From a virus (taxonomy: Duplodnaviria > Caudoviricetes), in IMG/VR virus record IMGVR_UViG_3300020112_000918, positions 32,001-96,000 of that record: a stretch of DNA of 64,000 nucleotides; one strand, written 5' to 3'. Position numbers and translations under genes: made by a program. Positions 3,195-40,695 of this stretch are shown one piece after another. The notes beneath the pieces are model-generated. The model ran no database searches. It saw only the letters and a list, made by a program, of their open reading frames with translations, and was not told where the DNA came from. The number at the start of each line of letters is the position of its first letter. Within the stretch, counting starts at the first letter, position 1.

Positions 3195-4286
3195 ATGACT
3201 TCTGAAGATCGACGAGAATTAAGATACCAGCGAAGAAAAGCTAAAAGAATTAAAGACCAACCAGATTTTTCTGAACTTTTAAAACCAGAAAATTTATACA
3301 ATTCCTACAAGCTATGCAGAAAAGGAACTTCTTGGAAAGCAGCTGTGCAACGCTATGGAAAACACTGTATACGAAATATTTTTGCTTCTATTGAAAAGCT
3401 AAAGAAAGGAGAACCAATTACAGAACCTTTCAATCTGTTTGAAGTTCAAGAGCGAGGACGTATCAGAGTAGTTATGAGCGTTCGTATAAAAGAAAGAGTA
3501 GTTCAGAAAGCCTTGCATGACTATATACTATTTCCTATTCTAAAACCTACATTAATTCCTGACTCGGGAGCTTGTATAAAAGGAAAAGGAATTTCTTTTA
3601 CGAGAAAACGACTTAAAGAGCATTTGCGCAGATTTTATAGGAAGACTGGAAATAATGAAGGCTACGTACTTTGTGTAGACTACTCGAATTACTTTGGCTC
3701 TATAAGGCATGATGTCTTGTTAAAGTTTTTATCCAAAAAGATTCGAGATGAACAGGTATTAAAGCTAGTAAAAGAAATTTTAGACAATTATAAAAAAATC
3801 GGCTTAGGACTAGGTAGTCAAATTTCTCAGCTATGTGCTTTATTTTATTTAAGTTCAGTAGATCACTTTGTGAAAGAAAAGTTGCGAGTAAAATATTATG
3901 GTCGTTATATGGATGACTGCTACTTAATAAGTGACTCAAAAGAGGAACTTAAGTATTGGCTTAAGGAAATTAGAAAGTTTAGTGAATCCGTTCTAGGACT
4001 AACTATAAGTTCTAGAAAAACTACTATTCAGAAATTAACAAATTTTAAGTTCATTAAGGGACACTACTGCTTATCTCTTACTGGAAAAATTAAAGTTTTT
4101 CCGGATAGGAAAACATTTTTAAGATTTAAACACAAATTCGTTAAAATGTTGAAAATGAAGTGTTCCGAAGAAATTTTGCTTCCTGTAGTGCAGAGCTGGA
4201 AAGGTCATTTAAAATATTTTAATTCTTGGAAAGAGAAGCAAGCAATGTTTAAGCTCTTAGGAACCTATTTAATTAAATCTAGCTAA
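3195..4286 (+). CDS. DGR reverse transcriptase RT1
   Basis: ERVVQ, DYSNYFGSI, GLGSQISQ (DGR-type GxxxSQ), RYMDD; MTSEDRRE..YQRR N-terminus. Confidence 0.95.
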   Translation: MTSEDRRELRYQRRKAKRIKDQPDFSELLKPENLYNSYKLCRKGTSWKAAVQRYGKHCIRNIFASIEKLKKGEPITEPFNLFEVQERGRIRVVMSVRIKERVVQKALHDYILFPILKPTLIPDSGACIKGKGISFTRKRLKEHLRRFYRKTGNNEGYVLCVDYSNYFGSIRHDVLLKFLSKKIRDEQVLKLVKEILDNYKKIGLGLGSQISQLCALFYLSSVDHFVKEKLRVKYYGRYMDDCYLISDSKEELKYWLKEIRKFSESVLGLTISSRKTTIQKLTNFKFIKGHYCLSLTGKIKVFPDRKTFLRFKHKFVKMLKMKCSEEILLPVVQSWKGHLKYFNSWKEKQAMFKLLGTYLIKSS

Positions 4287-4701: not shown

Positions 4702-4896
4702 GTGTTCCTACTCAAGACTCAAGAAGACGCACAAACTAGTTCCTCGATAGGCTTGCCTCCTGCTAATGTTGGTGGCGTTTTTGCCCTCAATACAGGCTCT
4801 CCAGCTCCTAGAGAGGACTCGATCTCAAAGTCAGTTAAACTTTACCTCGATAAAAATAAAGTGCCTCAGAAGGGAGATTTCGGAGGGTCAAAATGA
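4702..4896 (+). CDS. hypothetical protein
   Basis: 64-aa ORF, GGAGG before GTG, coupled to neighbours. Confidence 0.45.
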   Translation: MFLLKTQEDAQTSSSIGLPPANVGGVFALNTGSPAPREDSISKSVKLYLDKNKVPQKGDFGGSK

Positions 4897-5246
4897 ATCC
4901 AGAACTTTTAGATACTGTAAGAATCCTGATGACAGCTGTAATGATCGTCTCTACAGAAACTATCGGGATTCTTCAGTGGCTTAAGAACTTCATGTCAGAC
5001 AAAGGCTCAAAAAGAAAGAGAAACGCTTTTATTGCTTTTTGTATCTTAGTTCCTTGTGCTCTGATGAACTCAACTCTTGTGTCAACCTTGGCTACGGCTA
5101 TATTTAATGTTATATTTCTTTCATTAGCAGTTGAACAGCTTGCTTATCAGACCATTGTAAATGGTATTCCAAAAATCATCGATGCGATGTTTGACAAGGC
5201 TGCTTCCTTTGCTTCTAAGAAAGAAGAAAAGGAGAATTTACAATGA
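4893..5246 (+). CDS. membrane protein, possible holin
   Basis: Two to three hydrophobic segments, charged C-terminus. Confidence 0.5.
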   Translation: MNPELLDTVRILMTAVMIVSTETIGILQWLKNFMSDKGSKRKRNAFIAFCILVPCALMNSTLVSTLATAIFNVIFLSLAVEQLAYQTIVNGIPKIIDAMFDKAASFASKKEEKENLQ

Positions 5247-5944: not shown

Positions 5945-5960
5945 ATTTGCCTATTTGTTT

Positions 5961-8900
5961 ATGGCAAATAATTTAACTGATGGCATGCCTGAGGGCTTGA
6001 CCTTTAAATCTGAAGAACACAAACAAGATCTCACTTACAAAGCTACAGAAGAAGCATTGAGACAATTTTTAAAGATTTCTTCTCAGCTCGGAACTCATAA
6101 TAAAGACCTTCAAGAAGAGATTAAAACTCTTGTCGGAGATCAACAGAAACTGTACAAAAGATTCGATGAGGAACAGGCTCAACGCAGATTAGATGCAAAG
6201 CTGCTTCGTGAAAAGGGTGCTTCCGACGAAGAGATTATTGCCTACTTGTCTAAAAGACAGGAAACTTACGAAAAAGACACAAAGGCTTTGTTTGACTCAT
6301 TTGGAGATCTTCACAGAACTCTTGAAGGCTGGATTGAAGAAGATGAAAACCTTTCTGGTGGAGACAGAGTCCTTTTAAGAAAACAGCTTGAGACTTTCCA
6401 AAAGTCTTACGACCTGGATGAGCAGCTCAAGGCTGAAGCCGAAAGAAACGAAAAGAAACGAAACTCAATCCTCGAAAACATAGCAGAAAGTACTAAGGGA
6501 ACTTGGAAAGAAGCTCTTGAAAGTGGTAAATCTGAAAGAAAAGACCTGTTCGGTTCTTTTGCTTCTTCTCTGCTCGGTCCTCTTCGTGTTATTGCAGACC
6601 CTCTGACCAAGGTTGCCACAGGTAAGACAACTAGAGAAATCGCAGGAGACATTTTCGAGAAATGGACTTCAAAAGAGGACAAAGAAGATGAAGATAAGGC
6701 TGCAGAAAGAGACCTTGAACTCGAGACAGCTCTTTCATCGGCTCAACCGCCTTTAATTTCTTCTGTAGACCAGATAGCTAATCTTATCGAGAGTGACTCT
6801 CCTGAAGGACTTCTATCTCCAGAAGATATGAGAACTACGTCAACTGAAGAACTTCCTGTGTCTGCTTCTGTAAACAACGAAGGAATTCTGGAAAGAACAA
6901 CTCCTGTAGAAAACGACCTTTTACGTAAGGGTGGAATTGTCGGAGCAGCTGCTGTCTTCTTAGGAAAAGAAATTCGTAAGCTGGGTGAAGGAATTGAAGA
7001 CATCGACGTAGATGGAGATGATGAGGGATTCCTCGACAAAATTTCTGGAGGTAAGTTCTCAAAGACTCTTGCCAAACTCGCTCCTACTCTTGCTTCAGCT
7101 GCAGGAGTTGCTGCCGTTGCTGCAGTTCCTATTGCTATGCTCGTAGGTGGAGCTAAACTTCAGGAAAGAGATACTGAAGATGCTAAAAAGTATGCTGAAA
7201 AAGGCGAATACGGTCGAGCAGTAGAAACTGCTTGGCTTGGAGATAGAGAAAGACTCACTGAAGAAAATGCCAATGCAGAACTCGGAAGAGCAACTGGTAA
7301 AACAGCTCTGCTTGCAGGAGGAGCTGCAGGTGTTACAGCCTTAGCTGCAGGAGGAGCTGCTGCCGGAATGTCCGCAGGAGCTGCAGCTGCTGCAGGAGGT
7401 GCAGGACTCTTAGGTACGGGGCTTGCTGCTGCGGGAGCAACTGCAGGAGCTGTATTCCCTCCAGTTCTCATAGCTGCTGCGATTGCTGCAGCTGCAACAG
7501 TTGTAGCTAAGGGAGTTCAGGAAGCATATGAACTCGGATGGGATAAAAACCAAGCCGAAATTCAGAAAAACTTATACGATGTAATCTACTCAGAAGACTC
7601 TTCTGTTTGGGAGAAAGTTAAGGCTTCTGTCAGTTCAGACTGGAAAGAGTTTACAGGAACTATTGCTGGAGGAATCCGTGGAGTTACTGAAGAACTTGAG
7701 GGAGACGCAGCTATTGAATGGCAGAGAGGAATTGAGTATCTTGAAAAGACAGCTGCTGAAGGTAACGCAGAAAATGCTCGTCTTCTGACTATGATTCAGA
7801 GCGAAGAGTTTAAGTCTCTTTCTAAGAAAGACCAGGAAATGATGCTTAAATCAGAAGGACTTTTTGATGAGTATGAAACAATGCTCGATGAAGCTCAGAA
7901 CTCTTTCGGTGAAAGTATGCTTAACGGCTTACGAGCTACAGGGGACTTCTTTATCGGAGCTGTAAATACTAAGATGGAAGCCTATAACGGTAGAAAAGGA
8001 GCAGCAATAGATGCAAAACTTCTCAAAGAAATGGACAAAATTACGGGTGAAGATGTTGAACGCCTTAAAAATTCTACAGCGTATGCTGAAGCTCTTTCAC
8101 AGGGTAAAAATAAGAAGCAAGCAATGGAAGCAGCGTATCTCGAAGAAAAGCACAAAGAAAATGCAGCCCTCGGAATCCAAAAAGAAAACGGAGTCGCAGT
8201 AGGCTACAACGACTACGCTGTTACTTACTTCCAGAAAAAGAAATCTGATGAAGACTATCGTCAGACTCACGAATACGCTCAAGAAAAAGCTAAGCTCATG
8301 CAGAAAGGTTACTCTTCAGAGGAAGCAGATTTAAAGGCTATTGAAGAGTACAACGAAATGTATGAACAGGCTCTAACTTGGCGACTTAAACAGACTAAGG
8401 ACTATCGTGACCACTATAAAAAATGTCTCAAAGAAGGAAAGTCTATGGCTCAGGCTGAAAGAGAAGCCCTCCAGGTAGCCCGTGAAAACAAATACAACAC
8501 GATGACCTATACTGAGATCGTTAAAGAAAAGTTCTCAGAAATGGGTAAGGCTATTAAAGAGACATTTACAAAAGTCGGAGATAAGATCAAAGACGTGTTC
8601 GGAGATGTAAAAGAAAAGATTGCTGACGGGTTCAACGCTTTTAAAGAATCTGAATTCGGTCAGGCTATCTCAGACTTTGTTACAGGAATCTGGACAAAGG
8701 TTACTGAATGGTTCGGTAAGATAGGTGACTGGTTCTCAAGTAAGTGGGACTCAGTGGTTGGAGGTCTGACAGATGCTAAGGACTGGGTTGTAGACAAAGC
8801 CACAGCTGCGGGTTCTTGGATAAGTGATACAGCTTCATCTGCTTGGTCAGGAATTACAGACTTCCTCTCAATTGATGACGGTATCGTCACAAAAGACGGA

Positions 8901-9146
8901 AAGGTTATTCAGCTTTCTCCAGATGACAACGTTTATGCTACTAAAAATATGCCAACCGTTGTGGGAGATGCAGACGCACAAAGAGCTATGCCTTCTATTC
9001 CTGCTCCACAGCCTGAGTTTACAGATAAGAACATTATTGCAGCTATTCAGGTTCTTACAGAAGTTCTAAAGGGCAAGAATATGTCTCCTGAGATTAATAT
9101 TCCGGACAATTCGACTGTAGCTTTTGATCAGTTCAGATCTGCTTAA
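5961..9146 (+). CDS. tape measure protein
   Basis: ~1060 aa helical; Ala/Gly-rich hydrophobic segments; W/F-spaced 11-aa repeats near C-terminus; start likely ATG 5961, 4 nt after CCTATTT. Confidence 0.8.
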   Translation: MANNLTDGMPEGLTFKSEEHKQDLTYKATEEALRQFLKISSQLGTHNKDLQEEIKTLVGDQQKLYKRFDEEQAQRRLDAKLLREKGASDEEIIAYLSKRQETYEKDTKALFDSFGDLHRTLEGWIEEDENLSGGDRVLLRKQLETFQKSYDLDEQLKAEAERNEKKRNSILENIAESTKGTWKEALESGKSERKDLFGSFASSLLGPLRVIADPLTKVATGKTTREIAGDIFEKWTSKEDKEDEDKAAERDLELETALSSAQPPLISSVDQIANLIESDSPEGLLSPEDMRTTSTEELPVSASVNNEGILERTTPVENDLLRKGGIVGAAAVFLGKEIRKLGEGIEDIDVDGDDEGFLDKISGGKFSKTLAKLAPTLASAAGVAAVAAVPIAMLVGGAKLQERDTEDAKKYAEKGEYGRAVETAWLGDRERLTEENANAELGRATGKTALLAGGAAGVTALAAGGAAAGMSAGAAAAAGGAGLLGTGLAAAGATAGAVFPPVLIAAAIAAAATVVAKGVQEAYELGWDKNQAEIQKNLYDVIYSEDSSVWEKVKASVSSDWKEFTGTIAGGIRGVTEELEGDAAIEWQRGIEYLEKTAAEGNAENARLLTMIQSEEFKSLSKKDQEMMLKSEGLFDEYETMLDEAQNSFGESMLNGLRATGDFFIGAVNTKMEAYNGRKGAAIDAKLLKEMDKITGEDVERLKNSTAYAEALSQGKNKKQAMEAAYLEEKHKENAALGIQKENGVAVGYNDYAVTYFQKKKSDEDYRQTHEYAQEKAKLMQKGYSSEEADLKAIEEYNEMYEQALTWRLKQTKDYRDHYKKCLKEGKSMAQAEREALQVARENKYNTMTYTEIVKEKFSEMGKAIKETFTKVGDKIKDVFGDVKEKIADGFNAFKESEFGQAISDFVTGIWTKVTEWFGKIGDWFSSKWDSVVGGLTDAKDWVVDKATAAGSWISDTASSAWSGITDFLSIDDGIVTKDGKVIQLSPDDNVYATKNMPTVVGDADAQRAMPSIPAPQPEFTDKNIIAAIQVLTEVLKGKNMSPEINIPDNSTVAFDQFRSA

Positions 9147-9170
9147 AAGGTCGCCGTAGAAAAACTGTTC

Positions 9171-9180
9171 GGAATTATAC
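9171..9180 (+). promoter_or_regulatory. GGAATTATA-type promoter for the downstream ncRNA
   Basis: Matches the GGAATTATAA(T) motif found upstream of several non-structural genes. Confidence 0.5.
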
Positions 9181-9185
9181 TGAAT

Positions 9186-9649
9186 GAGCATTAAAAACAA
9201 GCCTTGATTTTACGCAGAAGAGATCTGACACTTGGGTCAAGGCTGCTTAACCTCTTCAACAAGGGGTAACTTCTACAAAGAAAAACACTTACTAGTATTT
9301 CTGGCTCGGGACGACAAAGCGTGATGCTACTCCGTAGGGGAATACGCTAAGGCGAGACTGTGGTCTAGCGTTGTAATCGTGGGAAGCAGTTTATGACCCT
9401 GACGTGTAGGTGGAGGAGTGGTGAGGGGAATGAGTACGCCACGTAGAAGCGATCTGAACTTATCGATAAAGGTACCACGGGAAAAACGGTTCAGCGATTT
9501 TTCCTGCTCTGATGATGGCTCCGTAGCTTGAATCATGGGCAACCCTGTCTTTAGGAGACCACCTAACGCCAGAAGCAGTTAGGGACTTTAAGCCACTCGG
9601 CTAAGTAGCGTTTCCTAAGGTCGGGTCTGCTCTTCCGAATCCACCACTC
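9186..9649 (+). ncRNA. putative large structured non-coding RNA
   Basis: No credible ORF, raised GC, many helices (AGCCTTGA/TCAAGGCT, GGAAAAA/TTTTTCC, CCTAAC/GTTAGG, GAGTGGTG/CACCACTC), loop-loop complementarity. Confidence 0.6.
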
Positions 9650-9701
9650 TTGAGATTTCTTTCTTATCTAATTGAGTTCCTATTTTTGAGTGGAGGATTA
9701 A

Positions 9702-10355
9702 ATGTGGAAAAATCTAAGATTACTTTACCTACTTGGCTCTTTATTCTTGTTCTCGTTCTTGCCCTTGCAGGAATTGCATTCTCAGTCTACTCCGAGTATA
9801 ACTTTTACAAATTTAAACATGATGCAGCCACTCGGTATTCCGAACTTGAACAGCAGTATAAATTGGAATCTGCCTCTCTCGCAGCAGAACTGGACTCAAT
9901 TCGACTTCACGCTGATGAGCTTGAACGACTTATCCAGGGCGTTCAATCTGGAGTATCAGAACTCTCAGAACTTAATAGACAATCTACAGAGTCAGCTAAA
10001 CTTCTCGAATCTTCAAATTCTGTCATTGGAGTTATCTTTGGAGAGTACGCAAGACGAACTGCAAAGGTTACAGCAGAGCTTGAACAACTCACTCGAAACT
10101 CAACAAAATATGGACTCCCTAGCCGAACAGATGACAACGGAAACTAATGTTCTGAAAGAAGAAAATAAACTTTATAAGCGTAAGATTAAGAAACTCTGGA
10201 TATCTATTGGAGTTTCTTCTGGAGGAGCAGCTATAGGAAGCCCTCTAATTGTTGAAGGAATTCGAACAGACAATCAAGTGATGACTTGGTCTGGAATAGG
10301 AGTTCTTGGAATAACAGCTATTTTTGATATAGTTTACAACATCTTCATAGAATAA
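9702..10355 (+). CDS. signal-peptide/coiled-coil protein with C-terminal hydrophobic hairpin (spanin partner-like)
   Basis: ATG after same GGAGG; signal-like N-terminus, coiled coil, two Gly-rich hydrophobic C-terminal segments. Confidence 0.6.
   Translation: MWKNLRLLYLLGSLFLFSFLPLQELHSQSTPSITFTNLNMMQPLGIPNLNSSINWNLPLSQQNWTQFDFTLMSLNDLSRAFNLEYQNSQNLIDNLQSQLNFSNLQILSLELSLESTQDELQRLQQSLNNSLETQQNMDSLAEQMTTETNVLKEENKLYKRKIKKLWISIGVSSGGAAIGSPLIVEGIRTDNQVMTWSGIGVLGITAIFDIVYNIFIE
9704..10147 (+). CDS. N-terminal TM + coiled-coil protein (i-spanin-like)
   Basis: GTG start after GGAGG; hydrophobic helix then heptad pattern; upstream of endolysin; nested in another frame of 9702-10355. Confidence 0.55.
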   Translation: MEKSKITLPTWLFILVLVLALAGIAFSVYSEYNFYKFKHDAATRYSELEQQYKLESASLAAELDSIRLHADELERLIQGVQSGVSELSELNRQSTESAKLLESSNSVIGVIFGEYARRTAKVTAELEQLTRNSTKYGLPSRTDDNGN

Positions 10356-10366
10356 GGAGAAAAGAA

Positions 10367-10774
10367 ATGGACACAAAACAGTTTGTAGACAAGTATCTTG
10401 GAACTAAGGTTGACGCAGACGGATTTTATGGAGCACAGTGCGTAGACCTTTTCCGTCAGTTCAATAGAGAAGTTTTCGGCTTTCCTCACACAGGAGGAGT
10501 AGACGGAGCTAAAGATTTGTATGAACTTTACGGTAAACTTCCAGAAGAAAAGAAATACTACGAGCAGATTCGTAAAGAAGGAACTATTCCTCTCGAAGGA
10601 GATATCGTAGTCTTCGGAAAAACTACTAAAAACCAATTCGGTCACGTAGCTATTGTTTTATGGGCTTCCAGAAAGACTATGGTTGTTCTTGAACAGGATG
10701 GTCTGAAACAGGATGGAGCAAAAATCGTAGCTCGTGACTATGACAATGTTCTGGGATTCTTACGTAGGAGATAA
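10367..10774 (+). CDS. CHAP-domain endolysin/amidase
   Basis: DADGFYGAQCVDL (catalytic Cys), GHVAIV (His), LEQD. Confidence 0.9.
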   Translation: MDTKQFVDKYLGTKVDADGFYGAQCVDLFRQFNREVFGFPHTGGVDGAKDLYELYGKLPEEKKYYEQIRKEGTIPLEGDIVVFGKTTKNQFGHVAIVLWASRKTMVVLEQDGLKQDGAKIVARDYDNVLGFLRRR

Positions 10775-10776
10775 AC

Positions 10777-11382
10777 TTGCCTAAAAAGATTCAGAACAAC
10801 TGGACGTTGCGTAAGCTGATCCAGAACACGTATGCCCATCAGTATTCTCGAACTCGCTTTGCCTATAAGCTAAGAGATATGGTAAAGGTCATACGTGTTG
10901 AACAAGTCTCTGTTTACAATGGAAAAGACCCTGGAAAAGCCCGAACAAAATACGTCATCACGACTCGTTCAACTCCTCAGTACTATCCTTACTACACTAA
11001 GAAAGATGCTTGGGGAAGAACTAGACAACGTCAGACACGCTACCATCACGAATACGCAGTTACTATTCAGATGGATACTCTTTCTCTAGACGTTCCGTTT
11101 AAGGGCAGAGTAGGTTCAATAGGAGCTTGGGATTTTTCAAAAAGAGGTTCCCCTATTCGTTTACCTAACGGAAAAGTCAAAGAAGGAACTAACTACCAGA
11201 AAGGAATTAACGCAGACTTCTGGTTTAGATGTTCTTGGGTGTGGCAGCAGGAAGGAATTCTTTTCGGTAAGAACTATGCAAAAGGTGCTCCTGTAAAGGT
11301 TAATCCTAACAGAATTGTTTTTGCTCCAAAGCACTTCTTAGCCGTAGTTCAGTACCTTATGGAAAGGGGAATTTTACACTAA
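10777..11382 (+). CDS. hypothetical basic protein
   Basis: 201-aa ORF, SD AGGAG with TTG start. Confidence 0.65.
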   Translation: MPKKIQNNWTLRKLIQNTYAHQYSRTRFAYKLRDMVKVIRVEQVSVYNGKDPGKARTKYVITTRSTPQYYPYYTKKDAWGRTRQRQTRYHHEYAVTIQMDTLSLDVPFKGRVGSIGAWDFSKRGSPIRLPNGKVKEGTNYQKGINADFWFRCSWVWQQEGILFGKNYAKGAPVKVNPNRIVFAPKHFLAVVQYLMERGILH

Positions 11383-11395
11383 GGGAGCAAAATAG

Positions 11396-11671
11396 ATGGA
11401 AAACTATTCAGACGTCTTAGATAAAGAAGCAATCATTGAGAGAGTATTTACTCAGGAGTTTGACTTCGGAGATTACTCTCTTGTAAGAGTAAATAATCAC
11501 TGGGAGATCCAGTTTGAAGATGAAGAGGGAGCTCAGTCAATTGTTATTCAGCCAGATGACTTTGATGAAAAAGATGAATTCCAGTTTATGATTGGTACAA
11601 AAGAATACACGTTCTCAAAATCTTCTTTTCTTAAAGTTGAAAATTTCTGTTTGGAGAATCACCTTATTTAG
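11396..11671 (+). CDS. hypothetical acidic protein
   Basis: 91-aa ORF with SD. Confidence 0.6.
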   Translation: MENYSDVLDKEAIIERVFTQEFDFGDYSLVRVNNHWEIQFEDEEGAQSIVIQPDDFDEKDEFQFMIGTKEYTFSKSSFLKVENFCLENHLI

Positions 11672-11682
11672 CCTATTTCTTT

Positions 11683-12066
11683 ATGGCAGTATATGTAGAT
11701 TATGACCTTACAGGAACTTCAAACCAACAAGGTAACATTCCCGTTTTAACAGATCAAGAAGCTCTCTCTAATGCAATCAAGCTCTGGCTATGTTCATTCA
11801 GAGGGGAAAGACTCTACCGTCCCAATAAAGGAGGATGGATTGTCGGTTCTCTTATGAAGCCAATGTCAGAAGACCGTGCCGTTGAAATGGAAAAGAATAT
11901 CAAGATAGGACTGAGAACAGACTTTCAGCCCTCTATTGAAGTAACTAGATGTAAGGTTACTCCTGACTACGAAAATAGTTGTTACTACGTTCACGTAGAA
12001 GGAAGATGTCCTGCATTCCGTTCATCTGTATACTCCGATGTAACTGTAAAACATCTGCACAGGTAG
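11683..12066 (+). CDS. baseplate wedge subunit, gp25-like
   Basis: EALSNAIKLWL...GERLYRPNKG motif. Confidence 0.85.
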   Translation: MAVYVDYDLTGTSNQQGNIPVLTDQEALSNAIKLWLCSFRGERLYRPNKGGWIVGSLMKPMSEDRAVEMEKNIKIGLRTDFQPSIEVTRCKVTPDYENSCYYVHVEGRCPAFRSSVYSDVTVKHLHR

Positions 12067-12075
12067 AGGTTTTAT

Positions 12076-13881
12076 ATGGCAGTTATTAAATTCGACTATA
12101 ATTCCGTTCTGGAAAGACTTAAGGCAAGAGTTCTTGCTCGACTTGGAGGGGAACAGATTCTGCTTTTCTCTACTAACTCGGCTTTCCTTGAAGCAGCTGC
12201 TGAAGAATTTGCGGACGCAGCTCTTTATGATGAATTTCTTACCCGTGAAGCAGTCTGGGAAACAGCTCAGGGTTACGGTTCTATTATGAAGCAGGTAGGC
12301 TTCTACGCTTACAAACCTCACAGAAAAGTTGGAGCTACAGGTCAGGTTCGTTTGTCTACTTCTTCTAGTTTTGACGGTTCTTGGGGAACTAATATAAACA
12401 TCCCTAAGTTTTTTCAGGTTTCAGGTGGCGGACTTTCTTTCCTTACTAAAGAAAGCACTTATCTCGCTGCAAATGCAAACTATGTAGATGTAACTGTAAT
12501 TCAGGGAGAAAAGATTGAACGCTCAGTCGAAATTACTTCAACTGCTTATCCTGAGCTTAAATACGCTACAGTAACTATAAAAGACTCAGACATTGAAAAC
12601 ACTCTATACTCTGTAAAAGTAAACGGAACTGTTTGGACTGAAGTAGATTCGATTCGTCTGGCTTCTTCTAATGAAGACCTTTTCTACACTTTGAAAACTT
12701 TGCCAGATTTTTCTGGAGTTGAAATATCATTCGGTAACGGAGTATTTGGTAGAAAACTTGAATACGGAGACACTGTGACCTTTGAATACCTACAGACAGC
12801 TGGAGCTAACAGCAATGTTCTTTCTAGTGGAATCATAACTTCTGCTGATACAAAGATTAAAGATGAATCTGGAACAGAAGTTACTTTCTATTGTACTAAC
12901 TTAGACGCTCTTGTAGGTGGATCAGGATATGAAAGTATCAATGACATCCGTTCATCTGCACCTCTTTCTTTTCAGACAGGTAACCGTGCTATTTCTTCTT
13001 CTGACTATGCTACTTTAATTAAGCAGACAAACTTAGTAGATAAAGTTCAAGTATGGGGAGAAAAAGAGATTAACGAAGACGCTGGAAACAGACCTGGAAC
13101 TTATGTAGAATCTTCTGAAAACCTGATTTACATAACAGGAATTACAATCGACTCAGAAACAGGTACGGGGCTTCCTTTGTCTGAAACCTCTAAAACTCTT
13201 ATTCGTGAAGCTCTTAATGACAAGAAAGGAACTACAGACATTCTTCAGTTTATTGATACTCAGATAGTTTATGTAACCTTTAATTCTGAAGTCTATATTT
13301 CTAACACAAAATATTCTTCAGAACAGGTTGTGGGAAATATTCACAAAGCTCTAGCAGAAGAGTATGCTCTGACAGGTTCTGCCTACAAAAAGAATCTTTA
13401 CTTCTCAGACTACTACAGAACAATAGATGCTGCTGAGGGAGTTGACCATCATAAGACTTCTCTCTCATTTACAGAATTTTATAATTTCTCTTCTGCTTAC
13501 ATGTTAACCGCAAATCTTAACTTGTCTAATATCGCTCCAGGAACTGTTAAGCTCTTTATTAGAGATGCTTCTCAGGATGAAGACTGGAAAGCTCTGGGAC
13601 ATGATAATGGCTACGGCTTAATCCTTGGAGATGAAATCGATCCTAGTGATCCTTCAAAGGGTAACTATGACCTGAATTCTGCTTCTATCTCATATAGCGA
13701 TGGTTCAATTGGAAACATTCTTGTTTCCTATGGCTTGTCACAGCCTTTCTCTAACTATCAGATAAAGATTGAATTCGGTCAGCAGGATTCTGAAGAAGGC
13801 GACCTTATTTTGAAATACAGACAGCAGTTGTTTGCTTTCTACAAAGACAAGATCACTACTCATATTATGGGGGTTGCTTAA
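12076..13881 (+). CDS. baseplate wedge subunit, gp6-like
   Basis: ISFGNGVFGRKL, GGSGYESINDIR..AP...NRAISSSDY. Confidence 0.9.
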   Translation: MAVIKFDYNSVLERLKARVLARLGGEQILLFSTNSAFLEAAAEEFADAALYDEFLTREAVWETAQGYGSIMKQVGFYAYKPHRKVGATGQVRLSTSSSFDGSWGTNINIPKFFQVSGGGLSFLTKESTYLAANANYVDVTVIQGEKIERSVEITSTAYPELKYATVTIKDSDIENTLYSVKVNGTVWTEVDSIRLASSNEDLFYTLKTLPDFSGVEISFGNGVFGRKLEYGDTVTFEYLQTAGANSNVLSSGIITSADTKIKDESGTEVTFYCTNLDALVGGSGYESINDIRSSAPLSFQTGNRAISSSDYATLIKQTNLVDKVQVWGEKEINEDAGNRPGTYVESSENLIYITGITIDSETGTGLPLSETSKTLIREALNDKKGTTDILQFIDTQIVYVTFNSEVYISNTKYSSEQVVGNIHKALAEEYALTGSAYKKNLYFSDYYRTIDAAEGVDHHKTSLSFTEFYNFSSAYMLTANLNLSNIAPGTVKLFIRDASQDEDWKALGHDNGYGLILGDEIDPSDPSKGNYDLNSASISYSDGSIGNILVSYGLSQPFSNYQIKIEFGQQDSEEGDLILKYRQQLFAFYKDKITTHIMGVA

Positions 13882-20667: not shown

Positions 20668-21108
20668 CTAGTTCTCCAACTTACAAAGTGTTACTTCAAT
20701 AGAAGAAAGTCCAAAGACCTGTTCTATTAAACCATAAACCGTATTCCAGTCTCCTCCCCCGATTCCTGCTCCCATTCCATAAGGAAGTGAAAGGCTCTTA
20801 AGGTGAAGAGATTCCATCTGTTTTCTTAAGTCTTTCAACCCAGAAAGAATACAACGGTAGTTAGTTGCAGCTCCTGCTTCATACTGACCGAAAATATTTG
20901 CCAGAATTCTTCCATCATTGCATTTAAGTAACTGAGTTTTTCCCAAAGGTCTGTTTACTTTACAACACTGAAGATAAGGTGTCCAGCATTCTGGAAAAGT
21001 CTTAAAAATAAGACCCGCAAGACCTCCTGCAATTCCTTTGCAGTTTGTCTGGTGTCCGATAACTTCTGTATTCGATTTGAGCAGATTGCCCGATTTGATT
21101 TGAACCAT
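20668..21108 (-). CDS. macrodomain protein (ADP-ribose binding/hydrolase)
   Basis: GNLL, HQTNCKG..GGLA, PYGMGAGIGGGDW. Confidence 0.9.
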   Translation of the reverse strand: MVQIKSGNLLKSNTEVIGHQTNCKGIAGGLAGLIFKTFPECWTPYLQCCKVNRPLGKTQLLKCNDGRILANIFGQYEAGAATNYRCILSGLKDLRKQMESLHLKSLSLPYGMGAGIGGGDWNTVYGLIEQVFGLSSIEVTLCKLEN

Positions 21109-21177
21109 AGTGGTTTATTATCCTCTATAAAATAGGAATTTTTCGGAAGCTGTGAGGAAAGTCCGTTCGCTTGCCTC

Positions 21178-21372
21178 TTACATAGAGATTCCAAACTGTT
21201 TAGACAGTGAAGAATAATTGTTAAGGATTTCTTTGTACTGCTCAGCAGTGCAACCAAGGATCGCTATAACCTTTTTAGCGTCCATAACCATGTTGTATTT
21301 TCCTTCACGCTGAATTTCAACGTATTTAGAAAACAATTCTTTTGTAACTGAGGATTCTTTTAACTGAACCAT
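21178..21372 (-). CDS. small protein (DUF5049-like)
   Basis: YVEIQREGKYNM motif; own promoter and SD. Confidence 0.55.
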   Translation of the reverse strand: MVQLKESSVTKELFSKYVEIQREGKYNMVMDAKKVIAILGCTAEQYKEILNNYSSLSKQFGISM

Positions 21373-21387
21373 AGCTACCTCCTATAT

Positions 21388-21398
21388 ATTATAATTCC
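21388..21398 (-). promoter_or_regulatory. putative early/middle promoter GGAATTATAAT
   Basis: Same motif with upstream CTTTTT at 34953, 35249, 40892, 63243. Confidence 0.7.
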
Positions 21399-21416
21399 GA
21401 GGAGGTAGAAAAAGGT

Positions 21417-21698
21417 TTAATTTTTATCGCCAATTCCTGACGCTTGTTTTGAGACAGTAACTGTTTTTGAGATGAAGAATTGGTTAGGATCGTCTTGAAT
21501 AAAGCCTACTTCAGTATCTACTGCGTGCACATAGTAGGTCACCCAAGTAGGCTTTCCTTCGTTTATTTTCGATTTCCAGACAAGAGTTGTAACTGACTCT
21601 CCGACTCTTGGAACTCCGGAAGAGCTAGGAAGAGTGAAGAGCAGATTACCTTTGTCGTCTTTGTAATAGATAGGGAAATTATTATTTTCTGTCGGCAT
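21417..21698 (-). CDS. hypothetical protein
   Basis: ATG 21698 is 7 nt after CCTATTT. Confidence 0.6.
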   Translation of the reverse strand: MPTENNNFPIYYKDDKGNLLFTLPSSSGVPRVGESVTTLVWKSKINEGKPTWVTYYVHAVDTEVGFIQDDPNQFFISKTVTVSKQASGIGDKN

Positions 21699-21712
21699 AG
21701 TAACCAAATAGG

Positions 21713-22165
21713 CTAGAAACCGTAGTAAAGTTTATCAAACTCCCGTAAGGTAATTCCGATCAGCTTTGTTCTATTGAAGTGAACATCGTTCCAGTAAGGC
21801 TTGAGAGCCGAAGGGCAGTTGTCTAAAGTAATGAACTTTGCAGCTGTCTTAGGCAGCCCTCTACTCCTTTTATCATTTTCCCACTTTCGTTCACACTCCC
21901 GATATGAAGATGCTACTACAAGGTAACGAATCTCTACAGGCTTTTCGCTTTCAAACTTCTCTACGTAGTGAACGTATTTAGCAACTTCATCACGGGTTTT
22001 CATTAAAAGACAAACAAGAAGGATGTCTATTAAGAGTGAGCTCCCCTGTAAGCTCAGGATGATCACAAGCAAGCTATTTGGCATTACGTTTCTCCTGTTC
22101 TTTGAACAACCGAAAATAGAAGTCTGAGATTTCTGATGTATGGACTTCTGGCTCCTGATATTCAT
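21713..22165 (-). CDS. hypothetical membrane-anchored protein
   Basis: Hydrophobic segment; true start probably the internal Met (MPNSLL). Confidence 0.5.
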   Translation of the reverse strand: MNIRSQKSIHQKSQTSIFGCSKNRRNVMPNSLLVIILSLQGSSLLIDILLVCLLMKTRDEVAKYVHYVEKFESEKPVEIRYLVVASSYRECERKWENDKRSRGLPKTAAKFITLDNCPSALKPYWNDVHFNRTKLIGITLREFDKLYYGF

Positions 22166-22478
22166 CGTTAGCTAGTTCAAAACGGTAACGCTGCTTAATG
22201 TCTGGATACTTTTCTTTGTCCACTTCAGAAAAGAACATTTCTGTAGGACGAGCACAGACACAGCCTTCCGGAATCTCCTGCTTAGTTCCAGGGATTCCTT
22301 TAGAGGAATAAAGAGATTCATAAACAACCAAATGTTCCCCTGTTTCTGAATGCTTAGCGAACGCAATTATTCTATAGAGATAAGCGTTAGGGAACTGCTT
22401 TAAGTCTACTGTCTCACGTTTAAAATGACGAATTACGCTTCCCACTTTGAAGCTAACTTTTCTACTAAAATCTCCCAT
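22074..22478 (-). CDS. DUF1653-family protein
   Basis: RHFK, AKHSETGEHLVVYESLY, RP.EMF.SEVDKEKYP..KQRYRFE. Confidence 0.9.
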   Translation of the reverse strand: MGDFSRKVSFKVGSVIRHFKRETVDLKQFPNAYLYRIIAFAKHSETGEHLVVYESLYSSKGIPGTKQEIPEGCVCARPTEMFFSEVDKEKYPDIKQRYRFELANDEYQEPEVHTSEISDFYFRLFKEQEKRNAK

Positions 22479-22492
22479 GGTATTTACTCTCC

Positions 22493-23023
22493 TTACCGTA
22501 TTGGTGCATATTTCTGTCTTGCGTTAGCACGATCTTCAATATTAAGAGCACGAAGTTCTGAACGAAGATTTACTGCCAAGTTGGTTAAAACGTTGTCAAA
22601 CTTATTAAGTGTTTCTCTCATGCGAATGTAGTGATCGCATTTCATTTCTGCTTGCAGAAGTTTTCTCTGCCAAGCAAAGTAGTCCATCTTGTGAGTAACC
22701 TTAACTTGCTGCTCAATTTCTTTAAGAGCAGGCTTTGTAGATTTTCCAGTATTTTCTGCCATGAGAAGTTCTTTTGCTTCATGGAACCATTGAGCATAAA
22801 GGTCTTCATACTCCAGTTCAAGGGCAGCTTTTTCTACTTTTACTCTCTGGTATTCTTCATTCAGCATACGACAAGTATCGTAGTACATACTTAAAGCGTA
22901 GTTAACTCTGCCAGGAGTTACTTCATTCCCAGTAGCGATTTCTCCGATCTGTTCATACTTCTTAGAAGTAGACTGAACAAAGGCGATATACTCGTCTATG
23001 AGAGCTTCATTTTCTTTTGTCAT
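22493..23023 (-). CDS. helical protein, possibly UvsY-like recombination mediator
   Basis: 176-aa coiled-coil; resemblance only. Confidence 0.35.
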   Translation of the reverse strand: MTKENEALIDEYIAFVQSTSKKYEQIGEIATGNEVTPGRVNYALSMYYDTCRMLNEEYQRVKVEKAALELEYEDLYAQWFHEAKELLMAENTGKSTKPALKEIEQQVKVTHKMDYFAWQRKLLQAEMKCDHYIRMRETLNKFDNVLTNLAVNLRSELRALNIEDRANARQKYAPIR

Positions 23024-23527: not shown

Positions 23528-25288
23528 TTATAATTCCGTCGCAAAGTAGAAGCCAAACAGCTTCTTTAAAGAATTTATTTCCCCGTAGTCTAAATCAAGT
23601 TTTATGTCCTGCTCTGAAACAGCTACTACTTGAGCTAATACTCCGTTATTTAAGACAACAAAGTCTGACTCGTTTAAGGTAACAGTGTCTGACGTAAGAC
23701 GAATGCATGAGCATCCTTCCAAAAGAGGAAGAGGTGTGAACGGAATGCTCTTAGACACTATGTCAGACTGAGCTGAATAGGAATTAAACGTATCGGCTCG
23801 AAGAATAGGTGAATCTCCTTCTTCATCGCAAGCAAATACTCGGAAGAATGTATTTTCTGTAGGAGGTTCAATAACTTTCTCTGTAAGTAAAAATCCGTTT
23901 TCATTCAGCCCCGTAATTGTTTCAGCTCCTGCAGTTAGCCAAGCGTCGTTAGTCAGATCTGCAAAAGAAGTAACTGTCTTACGTATGAGTTTGTATTTAT
24001 TGGCTGGAAGCACGTTTTTCCACACTACATGAGTTTCCCATCTTTTGATAGACTTGTCCAGATTAAGAACTGCTTGATTAAAGACACCTTGAATCTCGGG
24101 AACAGAGAGCCAAGTATTAACATCATCAGAAAAAGCCTTTACGCTTTTATCTGCATTAGCAAGACCCTTAACAGCATCTTCATAGATCTGAGGAAGTCCC
24201 TCAAGAACTGTATACGGTCCGTCAGGCTTTTTGACAAGCTCCTGCACCCAGTAGACAAGACCTTTACGAGTTCCTGAATCCGGAGTTCCAAGCTGTGAAG
24301 AGCTCTGATCAGACAAAGCATTGTAGTCTGAGATTAAAGTATTACAGTCAGCAACCAAGTCCTGAAGTTTAGAGTTAATAGAAGCTCTGTTTGAAGAAGT
24401 ACCCGAGCTTATTGAATTAAAGTAAGAGCGATAAGATTCTATCTTAGTAGTATCAGCTCCAACTTTTGTTAAGCAGTCGTTTAATCGACTTATGTCTCCA
24501 GGAAGGTCTATCTGGAATTCTTCAAGGATTGCTCCTTTATTGTTGATTGCGTTTACAGTGTCATTTAAACAAGTCTTATAAGCAGAAAAGCCGTTTAGTA
24601 AAGCATTAATCTTTCCTAACAGATCAGACTTAAACGAGTAGTCGTCTGGAGTGTCAATTCCGTTCTGACCTATATACCAGACTCCCTCTCCTTGCATATA
24701 AACTTCACTATTTTCAGTTCGCTTTCCTAAGTAGCCCGAGCCTTTATCCTTATCTGCTTGTGCTTTAGCAAGCTCCTGAGTAAGATAAGGACCTCGCATA
24801 TTTCCGTTAGAGGAAGCAACCGTTCCGATAGCTGCGATAAGGTCTTCACAAAACTGGCGAACACCAGTGCCTGAAGGAGATCCCGTAGACTCTAATGAAA
24901 AAGAATTAAGCCATTTAGAGTTTACGTTGAAGTCTTTCTGAGCTTTTTCAGTAGGCTGTCCTTCTTTCAGTTCAGGAGGATAAAGACCGTCGGCTCCGTC
25001 TCCGGAACCCGTAACGCAGAGAGAAAGATTTTTCTTATACTGAGTAGACCAGTCTCCACTAAAATCAGGAGTAGAAGTTTTTCTTCCTGCAGTTAATCGA
25101 GCCTGTTCTAGATAAAGAGCAACAACTTTCAGAATTCCCTGATCAGTTCCGTTTCCGAACAGAATAGGGTGTAAGTCATCTCGTCTAGTTTCTGTTTCAA
25201 TCTTAAGATTTCTTACAGACCTTAGAGACATGACTGCATTAGACCGAGTAGTTCTTGCTTTTTCGTATTCTTCTGCGTATGAAGTCAT
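23528..25288 (-). CDS. hypothetical (probably virion) protein
   Basis: 586-aa ORF, helical core, beta-rich C-terminus. Confidence 0.6.
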   Translation of the reverse strand: MTSYAEEYEKARTTRSNAVMSLRSVRNLKIETETRRDDLHPILFGNGTDQGILKVVALYLEQARLTAGRKTSTPDFSGDWSTQYKKNLSLCVTGSGDGADGLYPPELKEGQPTEKAQKDFNVNSKWLNSFSLESTGSPSGTGVRQFCEDLIAAIGTVASSNGNMRGPYLTQELAKAQADKDKGSGYLGKRTENSEVYMQGEGVWYIGQNGIDTPDDYSFKSDLLGKINALLNGFSAYKTCLNDTVNAINNKGAILEEFQIDLPGDISRLNDCLTKVGADTTKIESYRSYFNSISSGTSSNRASINSKLQDLVADCNTLISDYNALSDQSSSQLGTPDSGTRKGLVYWVQELVKKPDGPYTVLEGLPQIYEDAVKGLANADKSVKAFSDDVNTWLSVPEIQGVFNQAVLNLDKSIKRWETHVVWKNVLPANKYKLIRKTVTSFADLTNDAWLTAGAETITGLNENGFLLTEKVIEPPTENTFFRVFACDEEGDSPILRADTFNSYSAQSDIVSKSIPFTPLPLLEGCSCIRLTSDTVTLNESDFVVLNNGVLAQVVAVSEQDIKLDLDYGEINSLKKLFGFYFATEL

Positions 25289-30332: not shown

Positions 30333-30625
30333 TTACCTACCCCCACAAGATTTCCTTCTTCATCATAGCTGCGTTCTCTTAAAGTAGAAATCTCATCACG
30401 ACATCTCTGACGTTCTATAAGAACTTCAGCTGGAACATCTTTTCCGATTTCCTTAGCACGAATTGCATACCAGTCAGTGTCTTTTAGGTACTGCTCATCT
30501 TTTTCAATTAAATCAACATCTACTCTCTGCTGAGAAATTAAATGAGCTGCAACTTTTTCTTCTGTACTGAGTTCTTCAATGTCTGTTTTAGCAGAATTGA
30601 TTTTATAGCCAGGCTGATGAAACAC
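30329..30625 (-). CDS. tail fibre assembly chaperone-like protein
   Basis: YLKDTDWYAIRAKEIGKDVP.EV..ERQRCRDEI motif; start uncertain. Confidence 0.65.
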   Translation of the reverse strand: MFHQPGYKINSAKTDIEELSTEEKVAAHLISQQRVDVDLIEKDEQYLKDTDWYAIRAKEIGKDVPAEVLIERQRCRDEISTLRERSYDEEGNLVGVGK

Positions 30626-31910
30626 AGTTTTCTATATGAGATTTTCTTACATCTTCCTGGCAATTAATATCTCCCTGAACGTCTTCTACTTTAACAAAAT
30701 CAAAGATAGCTACATCGGGATTCTTAGTTGTTTTACCATCATAAAAAGTATTTTTACCTATTGAAGCTCCTACTATGAGAACAGGAACTCCAAGTATGTC
30801 TTGTATTCTGGTATGTTTTCTAGAGTCATAAGGCTTAACTACTTTATCTAGCTGCAGCAACATATCAGCTCCGTATATATGAAAAGTTTTATAAAGTTCA
30901 TCAAAATGATACTTTTGTCGGAATCTAGTTGCTTTACAAAAATCTAAAATTCCTTTATAAGAAGCAAGTGAGTGGTCTATTTTGAAGATTTCGTAATCTG
31001 TAAACTGAACGGTATTTTCAAGTGCTCCTTTATCTATTAAAGAACTACACAACCTTTGAATATTTCTAGCTGTGCGTCTTTTTAAGGTAGTCACAGAGTT
31101 TCCTTTAAAGTCTACAAAAGAACGATATCCTAAAGCCTGAACGCAGCTTCTTACACAAGCTAATCGATTTTTGGAAAGATTTAACTTGAGTTCCTCCTTC
31201 ATAAATAGGGGAATTTCTTTGCTAAATTTCTTTAAGTACTCTCTGTCATTAGAAAAGACATAAGTATCATCGCAGAATCTAACAAAATGAAGATGCCATT
31301 TATGCACTATCCAGAGGTCTAGCTCATTTAGATAAAGATTTCCTAACCACTGAGAAGTAAAATTTCCTATAGGAATATTAGTAGGACTGTTAATAGAGTC
31401 TATAATTTTGTCTAAAGTTCTTAATAAAGGAGGATCTTTAATCTTTTTACGAATTATTTCCTTCATCTTTTCATGATTTAATGAAGGATAAAACTTACGA
31501 GCATCTAGCTGAACGTACCATTTGTATTTACGAATGTACTCAACAATTTTGGCATGAGCTGCTTGAGTTCCTCTTCCCTTTATACAAGCAAAAGAATTGT
31601 CCTGCATAAGTTTAGCCCAAAACGGCTCAAGTACATTCATAATTGCATGATGTACCATTCTATCTGGAAAAACAGAAGTTGCATAAATTGTTCGCTCTTT
31701 TGGTTCATGTATGACTTTTATTCTATAAGGGCTAGGAGTGTATTCTTCATTTTTAAGAAGTCTTAAAACTTCATCTTCATAGTAAACATGATTTTCACCT
31801 ATCTCTTTTATTTCTCTATAAAAACCCTTGCCCAAAGTACACTTGTGGTAGGCTTTGGCTATATTTTCAGGTGTACAGATTTCTTCCCAAAAGCCAGTTT
31901 TTCTTTTCAT
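30603..31910 (-). CDS. DGR reverse transcriptase RT2 with C-terminal extension
   Basis: EPKER.I, FPDRMVHHAIM, LDARKFYPS, PIGNFTSQWLGNLYL, RFCDD, LGYR. Confidence 0.95.
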   Translation of the reverse strand: MKRKTGFWEEICTPENIAKAYHKCTLGKGFYREIKEIGENHVYYEDEVLRLLKNEEYTPSPYRIKVIHEPKERTIYATSVFPDRMVHHAIMNVLEPFWAKLMQDNSFACIKGRGTQAAHAKIVEYIRKYKWYVQLDARKFYPSLNHEKMKEIIRKKIKDPPLLRTLDKIIDSINSPTNIPIGNFTSQWLGNLYLNELDLWIVHKWHLHFVRFCDDTYVFSNDREYLKKFSKEIPLFMKEELKLNLSKNRLACVRSCVQALGYRSFVDFKGNSVTTLKRRTARNIQRLCSSLIDKGALENTVQFTDYEIFKIDHSLASYKGILDFCKATRFRQKYHFDELYKTFHIYGADMLLQLDKVVKPYDSRKHTRIQDILGVPVLIVGASIGKNTFYDGKTTKNPDVAIFDFVKVEDVQGDINCQEDVRKSHIENCVSSAWL

Positions 31911-32095
31911 TAGAATGCCTAAAAATAACGACTGTTCTTCAACTAAACTCTTAAAGGATTTTTCGATTCATTATCTACTAAATTATCTTTAAAACACTCT
32001 CGACTGTAAATTTGTCGTTTTATGAAACGTGCAGGTACAAGCTGTCAGTCTTATAAGTTTAAAAGCGGAGTGAGAGTTACTCCTCAACTTATGAT

Positions 32096-39276: not shown

Positions 39277-39292
39277 AAGATCTCCTTAAAAT

Positions 39293-39370
39293 AAGAACGG
39301 GGAGGATTCGAACCTCCACAATTCAGAACAGGCTACAAGTTCTAGTGTCTACCTTTTGCACCACCGTTCC
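39293..39370 (-). tRNA. aberrant tRNA (Leu-like D arm, 9-nt anticodon loop TTGTAGCCT)
   Basis: Acceptor GGAACGG/CCGTTCT, T arm GGAGG-TTCGAAT-CCTCC, anticodon stem AGAAC/GTTCT; identity uncertain. Confidence 0.6.
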
Positions 39371-39382
39371 TGCAGTTAGTAT

Positions 39383-40204: not shown

Positions 40205-40322
40205 AAGAAAAATGCTCAAGCAAGTGGGAGAAGAGCTTGAACGTATAAGGGATGCTCCGGAGAGCACCTCCACTACTCTGTTTGTTCTTTTCCAGAAGCT
40301 GCAAACAGAGAAAAAAGCCTAG

Positions 40323-40695
40323 TGGAGCATAGGGGAATTGAACCCCTGTCCGAGAAATAGCAACGTAACTACTTTTATACGGTCGTAAGCAACCTGTTTT
40401 AGCAGATGGCATTGTTGCGTTGCCACGATGAATAACCCTGTAATTTCTCATCAGAGTGCAGGATCTGCTTAACTCACTTACTGATGATAGACCTCTCATG
40501 TTTCGCAGGATTCCCCTTAGGAAGTCTTGAAAAGGGATCTGCACCTGAGCTCACGCAGTCTCAGGGAAAGCACTGCTTACGCAGCAGCTTTCATTGAGTA
40601 ATCGTTGTCGGTTACTTTAACTTGAACTGTTAAGGACGTTCTAGCCCTGACCGATAGCTAAATTCCTGATAACCCGTCGAAACCAAGAATGCCCC
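40323..40695 (-). ncRNA. ssrA: tmRNA
   Basis: 5' GGGGCATTCTTGGTTTCGAC, 3' GGACAGGGGTTCAATTCCCCTATGCTCCA, G3.U70 pair, tag (A)DNDYSMKAAA* at 40577-40609. Confidence 0.95.

Follow-up and report, generated by a model that had tools for sequence, protein, structure and literature searches.

We describe a locus in a 64,000-nucleotide (nt) stretch of a tailed-phage genome (the window: positions 32,001 to 96,000 of IMG/VR record IMGVR_UViG_3300020112_000918, a virus record of 133,795 nt that is about 79% complete). At this locus two proteins are encoded in two frames of one 441-base stretch, with start codons 2 bases apart and a single ribosome-binding site. We call the frame of 217 amino acids (aa) gene B and the 147-aa frame nested in it gene A (Table 1). 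Across the start region the window reads CCTATTTTTGAGT-GGAGG-ATTAA-ATGTGG, the G of the ATG of B being the first base of the GTG of A (ATGTG). Frame A lies one base behind frame B, that is, B is the +1 frame of A, and A of the window has no internal Met. The Shine-Dalgarno (SD) sequence GGAGG stands 5 nt from the ATG and 7 nt from the GTG; in most relatives these distances are 7 and 9 nt. One bound 30S subunit could set either start codon in the P site, and this choice would fix the A:B ratio. An earlier sequence-only reading, made by a model from the letters of the window, had placed the SD, the ATG and GTG starts and the nested second frame here, and its coordinates were exact. Gene callers applied to the relatives examined each reported one reading, either the 217-aa frame or a 147-150-aa frame with a short 3' gene. 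We also considered a TTG at 9650 as an upstream start for A and rejected it, as it has no SD and the distant relative L014 (see below) has an ATG at the position behind the SD.

Both frames are conserved. B has 89 homologues, almost all of exactly 217 aa and 65-81% identical. DNA was retrieved for 12 relatives within the window's clade, giving 13 loci with the window, and both frames are open in every one of them (A over 147-161 codons, B over 217), whereas the third frame has 24-29 stops in the relatives. Profile searches with A gave two more distant groups, with A relatives of 135-150 aa down to E = 3e-20: one of 135 aa that is 36-39% identical to A (P0111; loci L014 and L015) and one of 140 aa that matches the A profile at E = 3e-20 (P0112; locus L018). 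The distant groups keep the long overlapping frame, which covers 212 aa in L014 and at least 206 aa in L018, where it runs off the contig end. Across all 16 loci of the three clades there is not one stop in either frame, so that the second frame read from the window is uninterrupted in its homologues too. Between clades, B is 43% and 35% identical and A 36% and 35%, so that the two proteins are conserved about equally (35-43%). Searches of viral and metagenome contigs for more relatives gave only two contigs, genome contigs searched for B gave no relatives, and the DNA from 9100 to 12100 matched none of 50,697 phage records.

The start arrangement has been kept as well. In 13/13 loci of the window's clade the region reads CCTATTT...GGAGGATTA(N1-3)ATGTGGAAAAA, with the starts arranged as ATGTG. 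L014 and L015 read GGAGGAAAA-ATGAGTG; here the start-codon types are swapped, the ATG belonging to A, and B opens at a GTG 4 nt after it, directly after a TGA in the B frame. In L018 the sequence is AAGGAGGA-ATGAAATTGTG (ATG/TTGTG), with B starting from the ATG or the TTG and A from a GTG overlapping the TTG. The start codons have thus changed, yet the two starts remain nearly coincident and follow a single SD. In the window's clade the CCTATTT box just 5' of the SD keeps its distance in each of the 13 loci, and in L014 and L015 it reads ACTATTT; the combination CCTATTT-N4-12-GGAGG occurs 2 times in the window against 0.08 expected. A scan of the locus for sigma-70 promoters and terminators gave nothing above chance, and Rfam gave no match on window 9000-10400.

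We compared the openness of the two frames with chance by resampling, in which one protein was held fixed, its codons were redrawn from the phage's own usage and stops were counted in the other frame. For the window, 12.3 stops were expected in the A frame, which was open in 0/3000 draws, and 4.9 in the B frame, open in 10/3000. The corresponding values were 11.8 (0/3000) and 5.2 (3/3000) for L008, 10.5 (0/2000) and 4.3 (12/2000) for L014, and 14.5 (0/2000) and 5.2 (4/2000) for L018. The P value for an open frame is thus <= 5e-4 for A and about 0.002-0.006 per clade for B. An open B frame would be no surprise if only its first 35 codons were considered (P0 = 0.34-0.42 per clade); for the first 70 codons the three clades give a joint probability of openness of about 1e-3.

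Selection was then assessed in the window's clade (11-13 loci, depending on the test). Within the overlap, variation has a flat profile over the codon positions (0.089 / 0.123 / 0.159), and the non-overlapped tail of B has a single-frame pattern (0.162 / 0.066 / 0.264). As a neutral baseline we used the synonymous sites of the B tail and of the CHAP hydrolase gene that follows it, at which 60% of possible transitions and 29% of transversions are seen. Sites that are synonymous in A and nonsynonymous in B show only 27% of transitions and 9% of transversions (P = 2e-9 and 3e-6 against baseline), and sites synonymous in B and nonsynonymous in A show 34% of transitions (P = 3e-6). Changes that would create a stop in one frame while silent in the other were never seen (0/26 for stops in A, 0/29 for stops in B). 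Moreover, the accepted A-synonymous transitions are more conservative in B than the pool of possible ones (mean BLOSUM62 -0.10 vs -0.77, P = 0.0006), and the reciprocal test for conservative replacements in A gave P = 0.012, which argues for constraint at the protein rather than the RNA level. Constraint on B is strongest at nt 181-441, its predicted helix, and weakest at nt 91-180, a predicted disordered linker, and so follows the structure that is modelled for B. These comparisons show that both frames are kept open under purifying selection at the amino acid level, and dual coding is very probable. The proposal that two genuine coding frames share one SD is therefore well supported, since both are conserved open and constrained beyond composition.

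Could the pattern arise if only A and a short B-tail protein were made (74-81 aa, from an internal ATG at B codon 137 or 144), with the upstream B frame untranslated? Gene callers do split L014, L016 and L017 in this way, into 150 + 81 aa or 135 + 72 aa; over the overlap, B has a codon usage no different from an off-frame read, and the openness of its first 35 codons in each clade is unremarkable. However, in each of three clades B stays open from end to end of the overlap, at the low P values given above; A-synonymous sites are strongly constrained, most at nt 181-441, and the changes there are conservative in B. The internal ATGs have no SD, and in L014 the B frame opens at its GTG directly after a stop, 4 nt from the ATG of A and behind the SD. 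We therefore consider this explanation very improbable. A programmed +1 frameshift that joins the N-terminal part of A to the hairpin of B, giving a membrane segment at each end and making the upstream openness of B incidental, would suit the +1 position of the B frame relative to A and the overlap of the two frames at the 3' end of A. Yet it leaves the openness and constraint over 145 upstream codons of B and its conserved, SD-backed start unexplained, and no slippery site was noticed on reading the sequence, although no search was made for one; it can hardly be credited.

Codon usage gives an indication of which frame came first. The argument is that the older frame of an overlap keeps genome-typical usage and the overprinted one does not (PMC3494269). 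Usage in A is typical (mean log relative synonymous codon usage 0.168 vs 0.209 +/- 0.068 for phage genes), as it is in the tail of B (0.233). The overlapped part of B, 60% of which is L, S, N and Q, scores -0.202, close to ordinary genes read in their +1 frame (-0.221 +/- 0.069). On this argument A looks like the older frame, with the first ~145 residues of B overprinted onto it. A short gene for the C-terminal hairpin may have been extended upstream across all of A, before the three clades diverged, to give B. A search for the hairpin of B among shorter proteins found only gene-caller fragments of the window's clade.

Protein A has one strong hydrophobic segment at residues ~10-30 (Kyte-Doolittle 17-residue mean 2.96 in the window and 2.1-2.8 in relatives), followed by a single predicted helix and an acidic tail. 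The AlphaFold2 (AF2) model has a helix at residues 10-137, with a predicted local distance difference test score (pLDDT) of about 90. On this model A would be a type-II membrane protein whose helix, of ~110 residues, would lie in the periplasm. It has the build of an i-spanin, namely an N-terminal transmembrane domain and a helical domain within about 100-200 aa. Against Pfam and PHROG, A gave no match at E <= 0.001, only sub-threshold DUF7248 and coiled-coil noise, and its relatives are uncharacterised. In the ESM Atlas both A and B fall only in unnamed viral clusters. Foldseek searches of the AF2 models against BFVD also gave no match at E <= 0.001, long single helices being uninformative for such a search; one 'Rz lysis protein' appeared among the matches at a non-significant E = 8.9. 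A second protein built like A (145 aa, with a membrane segment at the N-terminus and a charged helical region behind it) is encoded elsewhere, and just 3' of it lies a 317-aa protein that could, from its sequence, be a baseplate spike (Table 1).

Protein B also has a hydrophobic N-terminus (residues 5-23, Kyte-Doolittle 1.6-2.1), which is a shadow of the membrane segment of A, because NTN codons become TNN codons in the shifted frame. In the AF2 model there follow a poorly constrained linker of low confidence (residues 29-60) and a helix at residues 74-179, with a pLDDT of 78-93 to about residue 165. The C-terminal hairpin has normal codon usage and a single-frame substitution pattern, and its motif G-x-G-[ST]-P-L-I-V-E-G is kept in all three clades. 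Its two segments, which flank PLIVEG, are rich in Gly and Ser with a hydrophobicity of only 1.3-2.0, and AF2 confidence is low there. B stops 1-2 residues past its last hydrophobic segment and has no charged C-terminal tail. Pfam and PHROG searches with B gave only sub-threshold coiled-coil noise. The architectures first described for the pair, a hydrophobic segment plus helix in A and a hydrophobic N-terminus, long helix and Gly-rich C-terminal segments in B, are thus seen. It had also been stated that neither protein has a Cys. This is true of both window proteins; most relatives of B do carry one (e.g. ...LQELAC/QSSS). At the position of this Cys27 the main clade reads ELAC/Q, the window ELHS/Q, L014 ELVG and L018 WLGC. 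The spanin lipobox consensus is [LVI][ASTVI][GAS]C (PMC6139136). We considered B as a lipoprotein and rejected it, as Cys27 is not conserved and ELAC falls outside that consensus. As read from the sequence, the residues at this position, a small one at -1 and Leu at -3, would allow cleavage like that of signal peptidase I in all clades.

These features suggest a mechanism in which adjacent starts behind one SD are read in two frames; two membrane-anchored, mostly alpha-helical proteins would be made, and start choice would set their ratio. We infer that A and B pair through their co-encoded helices.

Table 1. Features of the A/B locus, its neighbours and other elements of the phage; positions are those of the window unless a locus is named.
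Feature	Position	Strand	Remark
Shine-Dalgarno GGAGG, common to both start codons	9692-9696	+	present in 16/16 loci of three clades
Gene B, 217 aa	9702-10355	+	ATG 9702-9704 to TAA 10353-10355
Gene A, 147 aa	9704-10147	+	GTG 9704-9706 to TAA 10145-10147; wholly within B
CCTATTT box, candidate phage late-promoter element	9679-9685	+	just 5' of the SD
Transmembrane segment of A, about residues 10-30	9731-9793	+	same bases encode the hydrophobic N-terminus of B
C-terminal hairpin of B, residues 166-184 and 194-216	10197-10349	+	not overlapped by A
CHAP peptidoglycan hydrolase, 135 aa, without signal sequence	10367-10774	+	Pfam CHAP E = 3e-8
Tape-measure gene	5955-9146		
325-aa gene between B and CHAP in one relative	L007:2916-3893	+	no Pfam match
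SLT lytic transglycosylase, 211 aa	L020:1417-2052 = G000 108018-108653	-	
Phage GroEL, full-length	L021:1396-3063 = G000 about 20865-22532	+	
117-aa open reading frame	4893-5246	+	no PHROG match
Protein built like A, 145 aa	L104:1363-1800 = G000 23762-24199	+	
317-aa protein	L104:1872-2825 = G000 24271-25224	+	possible baseplate spike
Homing/HNH endonuclease, 519 aa	15728-17287	+	PHROG E = 2e-85
Tail-tube-like protein, 176 aa	17326-17856		
Diversity-generating retroelements	3195-4286; 30603-31910; 32434-34182	+; -; -	
tRNA-Leu gene and tmRNA gene	39292-39371; 40322-40695	-; -	

A CHAP-domain gene directly follows the pair, as had been noted. From B it is separated by 11 nt and from the baseplate-module gene that follows by 2 nt, and its product, the only CHAP protein in the record, matches PHROG endolysin families at E = 4e-19. 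Its closest annotated relatives are endolysins of Arthrobacter and Lactococcus phages (32-42% identity). Upstream of the pair are the tape-measure gene and then a gap of ~550 nt free of open reading frames (ORFs). Downstream of CHAP, at gaps of 2-13 nt, come genes for proteins of 201 aa and 91 aa and for gp25-like and gp6/J-like wedge proteins. The insertion of a 325-aa gene in L007 means that B and CHAP are not obligatorily adjacent. A second muralytic gene, for an SLT lytic transglycosylase, lies 66 kb away and has no holin-like neighbours. Its product has an N-terminal hydrophobic segment containing Gly, Ala and Ser, VCIIAGNFLLAIGLSMILSSF, which makes it a possible candidate for a signal-anchor-release endolysin, judged by this segment. 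Amidase_2, Amidase_3, phage lysozyme, M23 and NlpC/P60 domains were sought in the record without a match. When all six frames of the 134-kb record were scanned for a signal sequence with a lipobox, no credible lipoprotein emerged; the two ORFs that the scan gave lie elsewhere and are implausible. In GroEL, the phage shares 75-77% identity with Treponema bryantii, T. zioleckii and Treponema metagenome-assembled genomes, and no more than 65% with any other genome. This identity indicates that the host is probably a gut Treponema, a diderm.

Our best explanation as a whole is that A and B form a dual-start pair, that A is the older frame and B was extended by overprinting, and that the pair has an envelope role with CHAP at lysis; we give it a probability of roughly 55%. 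That A and B act in the envelope of the Treponema host, with the adjacent signal-less CHAP hydrolase, during lysis has, taken by itself, a little under an even chance. We favour a lysis role because membrane proteins lie directly 5' of a small signal-less hydrolase, A has the i-spanin build, spanin genes typically have nested frames, the two starts resemble those of dual-start holins, and the probable diderm host is paired with a record holding no canonical spanin candidate. Features of the holin type are the hydrophobic segments of both proteins and the short distance between the end of B and the presumed endolysin gene. Within lysis, a holin/antiholin-like pair that releases CHAP is rather unlikely, a lipoprotein-free, spanin-like pair that spans the periplasm somewhat less probable again, and a function that falls to neither type, or mixes the two, doubtful. 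A 117-aa ORF between the tail assembly chaperone and the tape measure is holin-like in size and has three moderately hydrophobic segments; we considered it as a holin and rejected it for its lack of a PHROG match and its tail-chaperone position.

Several observations weigh against our explanation, and with it against the name of lysis locus that the sequence-only reading had given to the pair. A and B match no holin, spanin or other family in Pfam, PHROG, the ESM Atlas or BFVD. The pair lies 5' of the hydrolase and inside the operon, between the tape measure and tightly coupled baseplate genes, so that CHAP could be a tail lysin and A and B entry proteins. B has neither the charged C-terminal tail of holins nor the lipobox of spanins; the signal-anchored SLT supplies a second muralytic gene elsewhere in the genome. 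The codon usage of B over the overlap is that of an off-frame read, as would be expected of an untranslated frame too, yet it also fits overprinting.

The main rival is that the pair serves entry, not exit. A, B and CHAP would then be associated with the tail or ejected from it, leaving at infection like the hydrophobic, helical tape measure encoded just 5', to cut peptidoglycan and form a DNA conduit in the host membranes. Many phages encode virion-associated cell-wall hydrolases directly after the tape measure. Here the order tape measure - A/B - CHAP - 201 aa - 91 aa - gp25-like - gp6/J-like is kept in all clades with gaps of 2-13 nt; a weaker PHROG match of CHAP is a tail-associated hydrolase, one homologue in an Arthrobacter phage is annotated as a minor tail protein, and the SLT elsewhere could be the true endolysin. 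However, the strong hydrophobic N-terminal segment of A is typical of co-translational insertion and hard to reconcile with soluble tail assembly. Moreover, the best relatives of CHAP are endolysins, the 135-aa CHAP-only protein has no obvious domain for virion attachment, and no holin-like gene neighbours the SLT. We regard an entry role as somewhat unlikely.

Alternatively, the pair may have a membrane function apart from lysis or entry, such as superinfection exclusion or interference with the host envelope or flagella. Small phage membrane proteins often serve exclusion, and the lack of any family assignment from Pfam, PHROG and the ESM Atlas would suit such a role. Yet exclusion genes are usually variable accessory genes, whereas A and B are fixed in a late structural operon across clades that, at 35-43% identity, keep the pair with the hydrolase gene tightly after it. 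Such a function seems distinctly unlikely.

With respect to our explanation of an envelope role at lysis, the closest known systems are lambda Rz/Rz1 and other embedded or overlapped spanins (Kongari et al. 2018, PMC6139136), which likewise comprise two envelope proteins in two frames beside a muralytic gene in phages of diderm hosts. A, at 147 aa, resembles Rz (153 aa) in its N-terminal membrane segment and helical periplasmic domain, and the frame relation is shared too, B being +1 to A and Rz1 to Rz. In contrast, the nesting is reversed, the i-spanin-like gene lying inside the other; the overlap is 147 codons, not about 60; and the pair is 5', not 3', of the hydrolase. Embedded o-spanins start at about 0.4-0.5 of the length of the i-spanin (PMC6139136), whereas the starts of A and B lie 2 nt apart behind one SD. 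Unlike Rz1, B has no conserved lipobox, is 217 aa long and not Pro-rich, and is predicted to be helical with a hydrophobic end. With its signal-like N-terminus and putative C-terminal membrane segments, B could in principle cross the periplasm like the unimolecular spanin T1 gp11 (PMC6139136). Unlike gp11 it has no outer-membrane lipoprotein signal, with no Cys in the window, ELAC in the main clade and ELVG in L014.

The earlier suggestion of a lipoprotein-free spanin is therefore supported in part, by the size and architecture of A, the probable diderm host and the absence of a lipoprotein spanin candidate from the 134-kb record. It is weakened by B, through its lack of a conserved lipobox Cys, its 217 aa, its C-terminal segments of inner-membrane type and the reversed nesting. 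Indeed, we know of no route by which a 217-aa protein that ends in such segments would reach the outer membrane. A bolder version, in which a lipoprotein-free, periplasm-spanning coiled-coil machine specific to spirochaete phages replaces spanins, or holin and spanin, is unlikely. In such a machine the partner helices would be encoded in register in the same DNA, and their stoichiometry would be hard-wired by start-codon competition.

Dual-start holin/antiholin genes, such as lambda S107/S105 and phage 21 S71/S68, offer another comparison. They too have two start codons a few bases apart just 5' of a muralytic gene, with start choice setting the ratio of the products, and the B tail has two membrane-type segments, the first rich in Gly, Ala and Ser. 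The starts of A and B are, however, out of frame, and the products are unrelated in sequence and both carry helices of ~100 residues; B has no charged C-terminal tail, and neither protein matches a holin family. As to the overlap itself, phiX174 E in D and other overprinted viral genes (Sabath et al. 2012, PMC3494269) also have a new frame laid over an older gene, with genome-typical codon usage in the older frame (here A) and atypical usage and biased composition in the new one (B). Unlike these, the overprinted part of B is modelled as a long, ordered helix (pLDDT 78-93) and not as disordered, and B is as conserved as the older A and uses the ribosome-binding site of the older gene.

In the literature we found no description of the A/B pair, of Treponema-phage spanins or of out-of-frame co-starts. 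What sets the pair apart is how long the overlap is, that both genes use one initiation site, that the nesting is reversed and that the overprinted part is predicted to be ordered. To our knowledge, few same-strand dual-coding regions of tailed phages would match this one in length and support; it has 147 codons conserved to about 35% identity, and both products are apparently structured. If our explanation is true, one initiation site serves two unrelated proteins, whose start codons overlap by a base (ATGTG), and in this locus the passage of an overprinted frame into an ordered protein could be studied in a clean natural setting. Should the pair act in lysis, it would offer a first clue to the way in which large phages of Treponema, which here have no canonical spanin candidates, breach the envelope. 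Annotation pipelines for this phage group should carry both A and B.

Other elements of the window may be recorded (Table 1). A homing endonuclease gene lies within the baseplate/tail module and is followed by the gene for a tail-tube-like protein. Two reverse transcriptases and an Mtd-like target with an FGE-sulfatase-type C-terminus constitute diversity-generating retroelements, and a tRNA-Leu gene is present together with a phage tmRNA gene that encodes the tag DNDYSMKAAA. The gap between the tape measure and A, which L014 lacks (its tape measure ends 22 nt from A), is matched by discrete RNA contigs, which span the gap rather than A and B, in two pig-gut metatranscriptome studies, one of 446 nt (exactly 9199-9644) and one covering 9483-9644. 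Both end at 9644 without a loose end while DNA contigs continue, which is consistent with a stable non-coding RNA.

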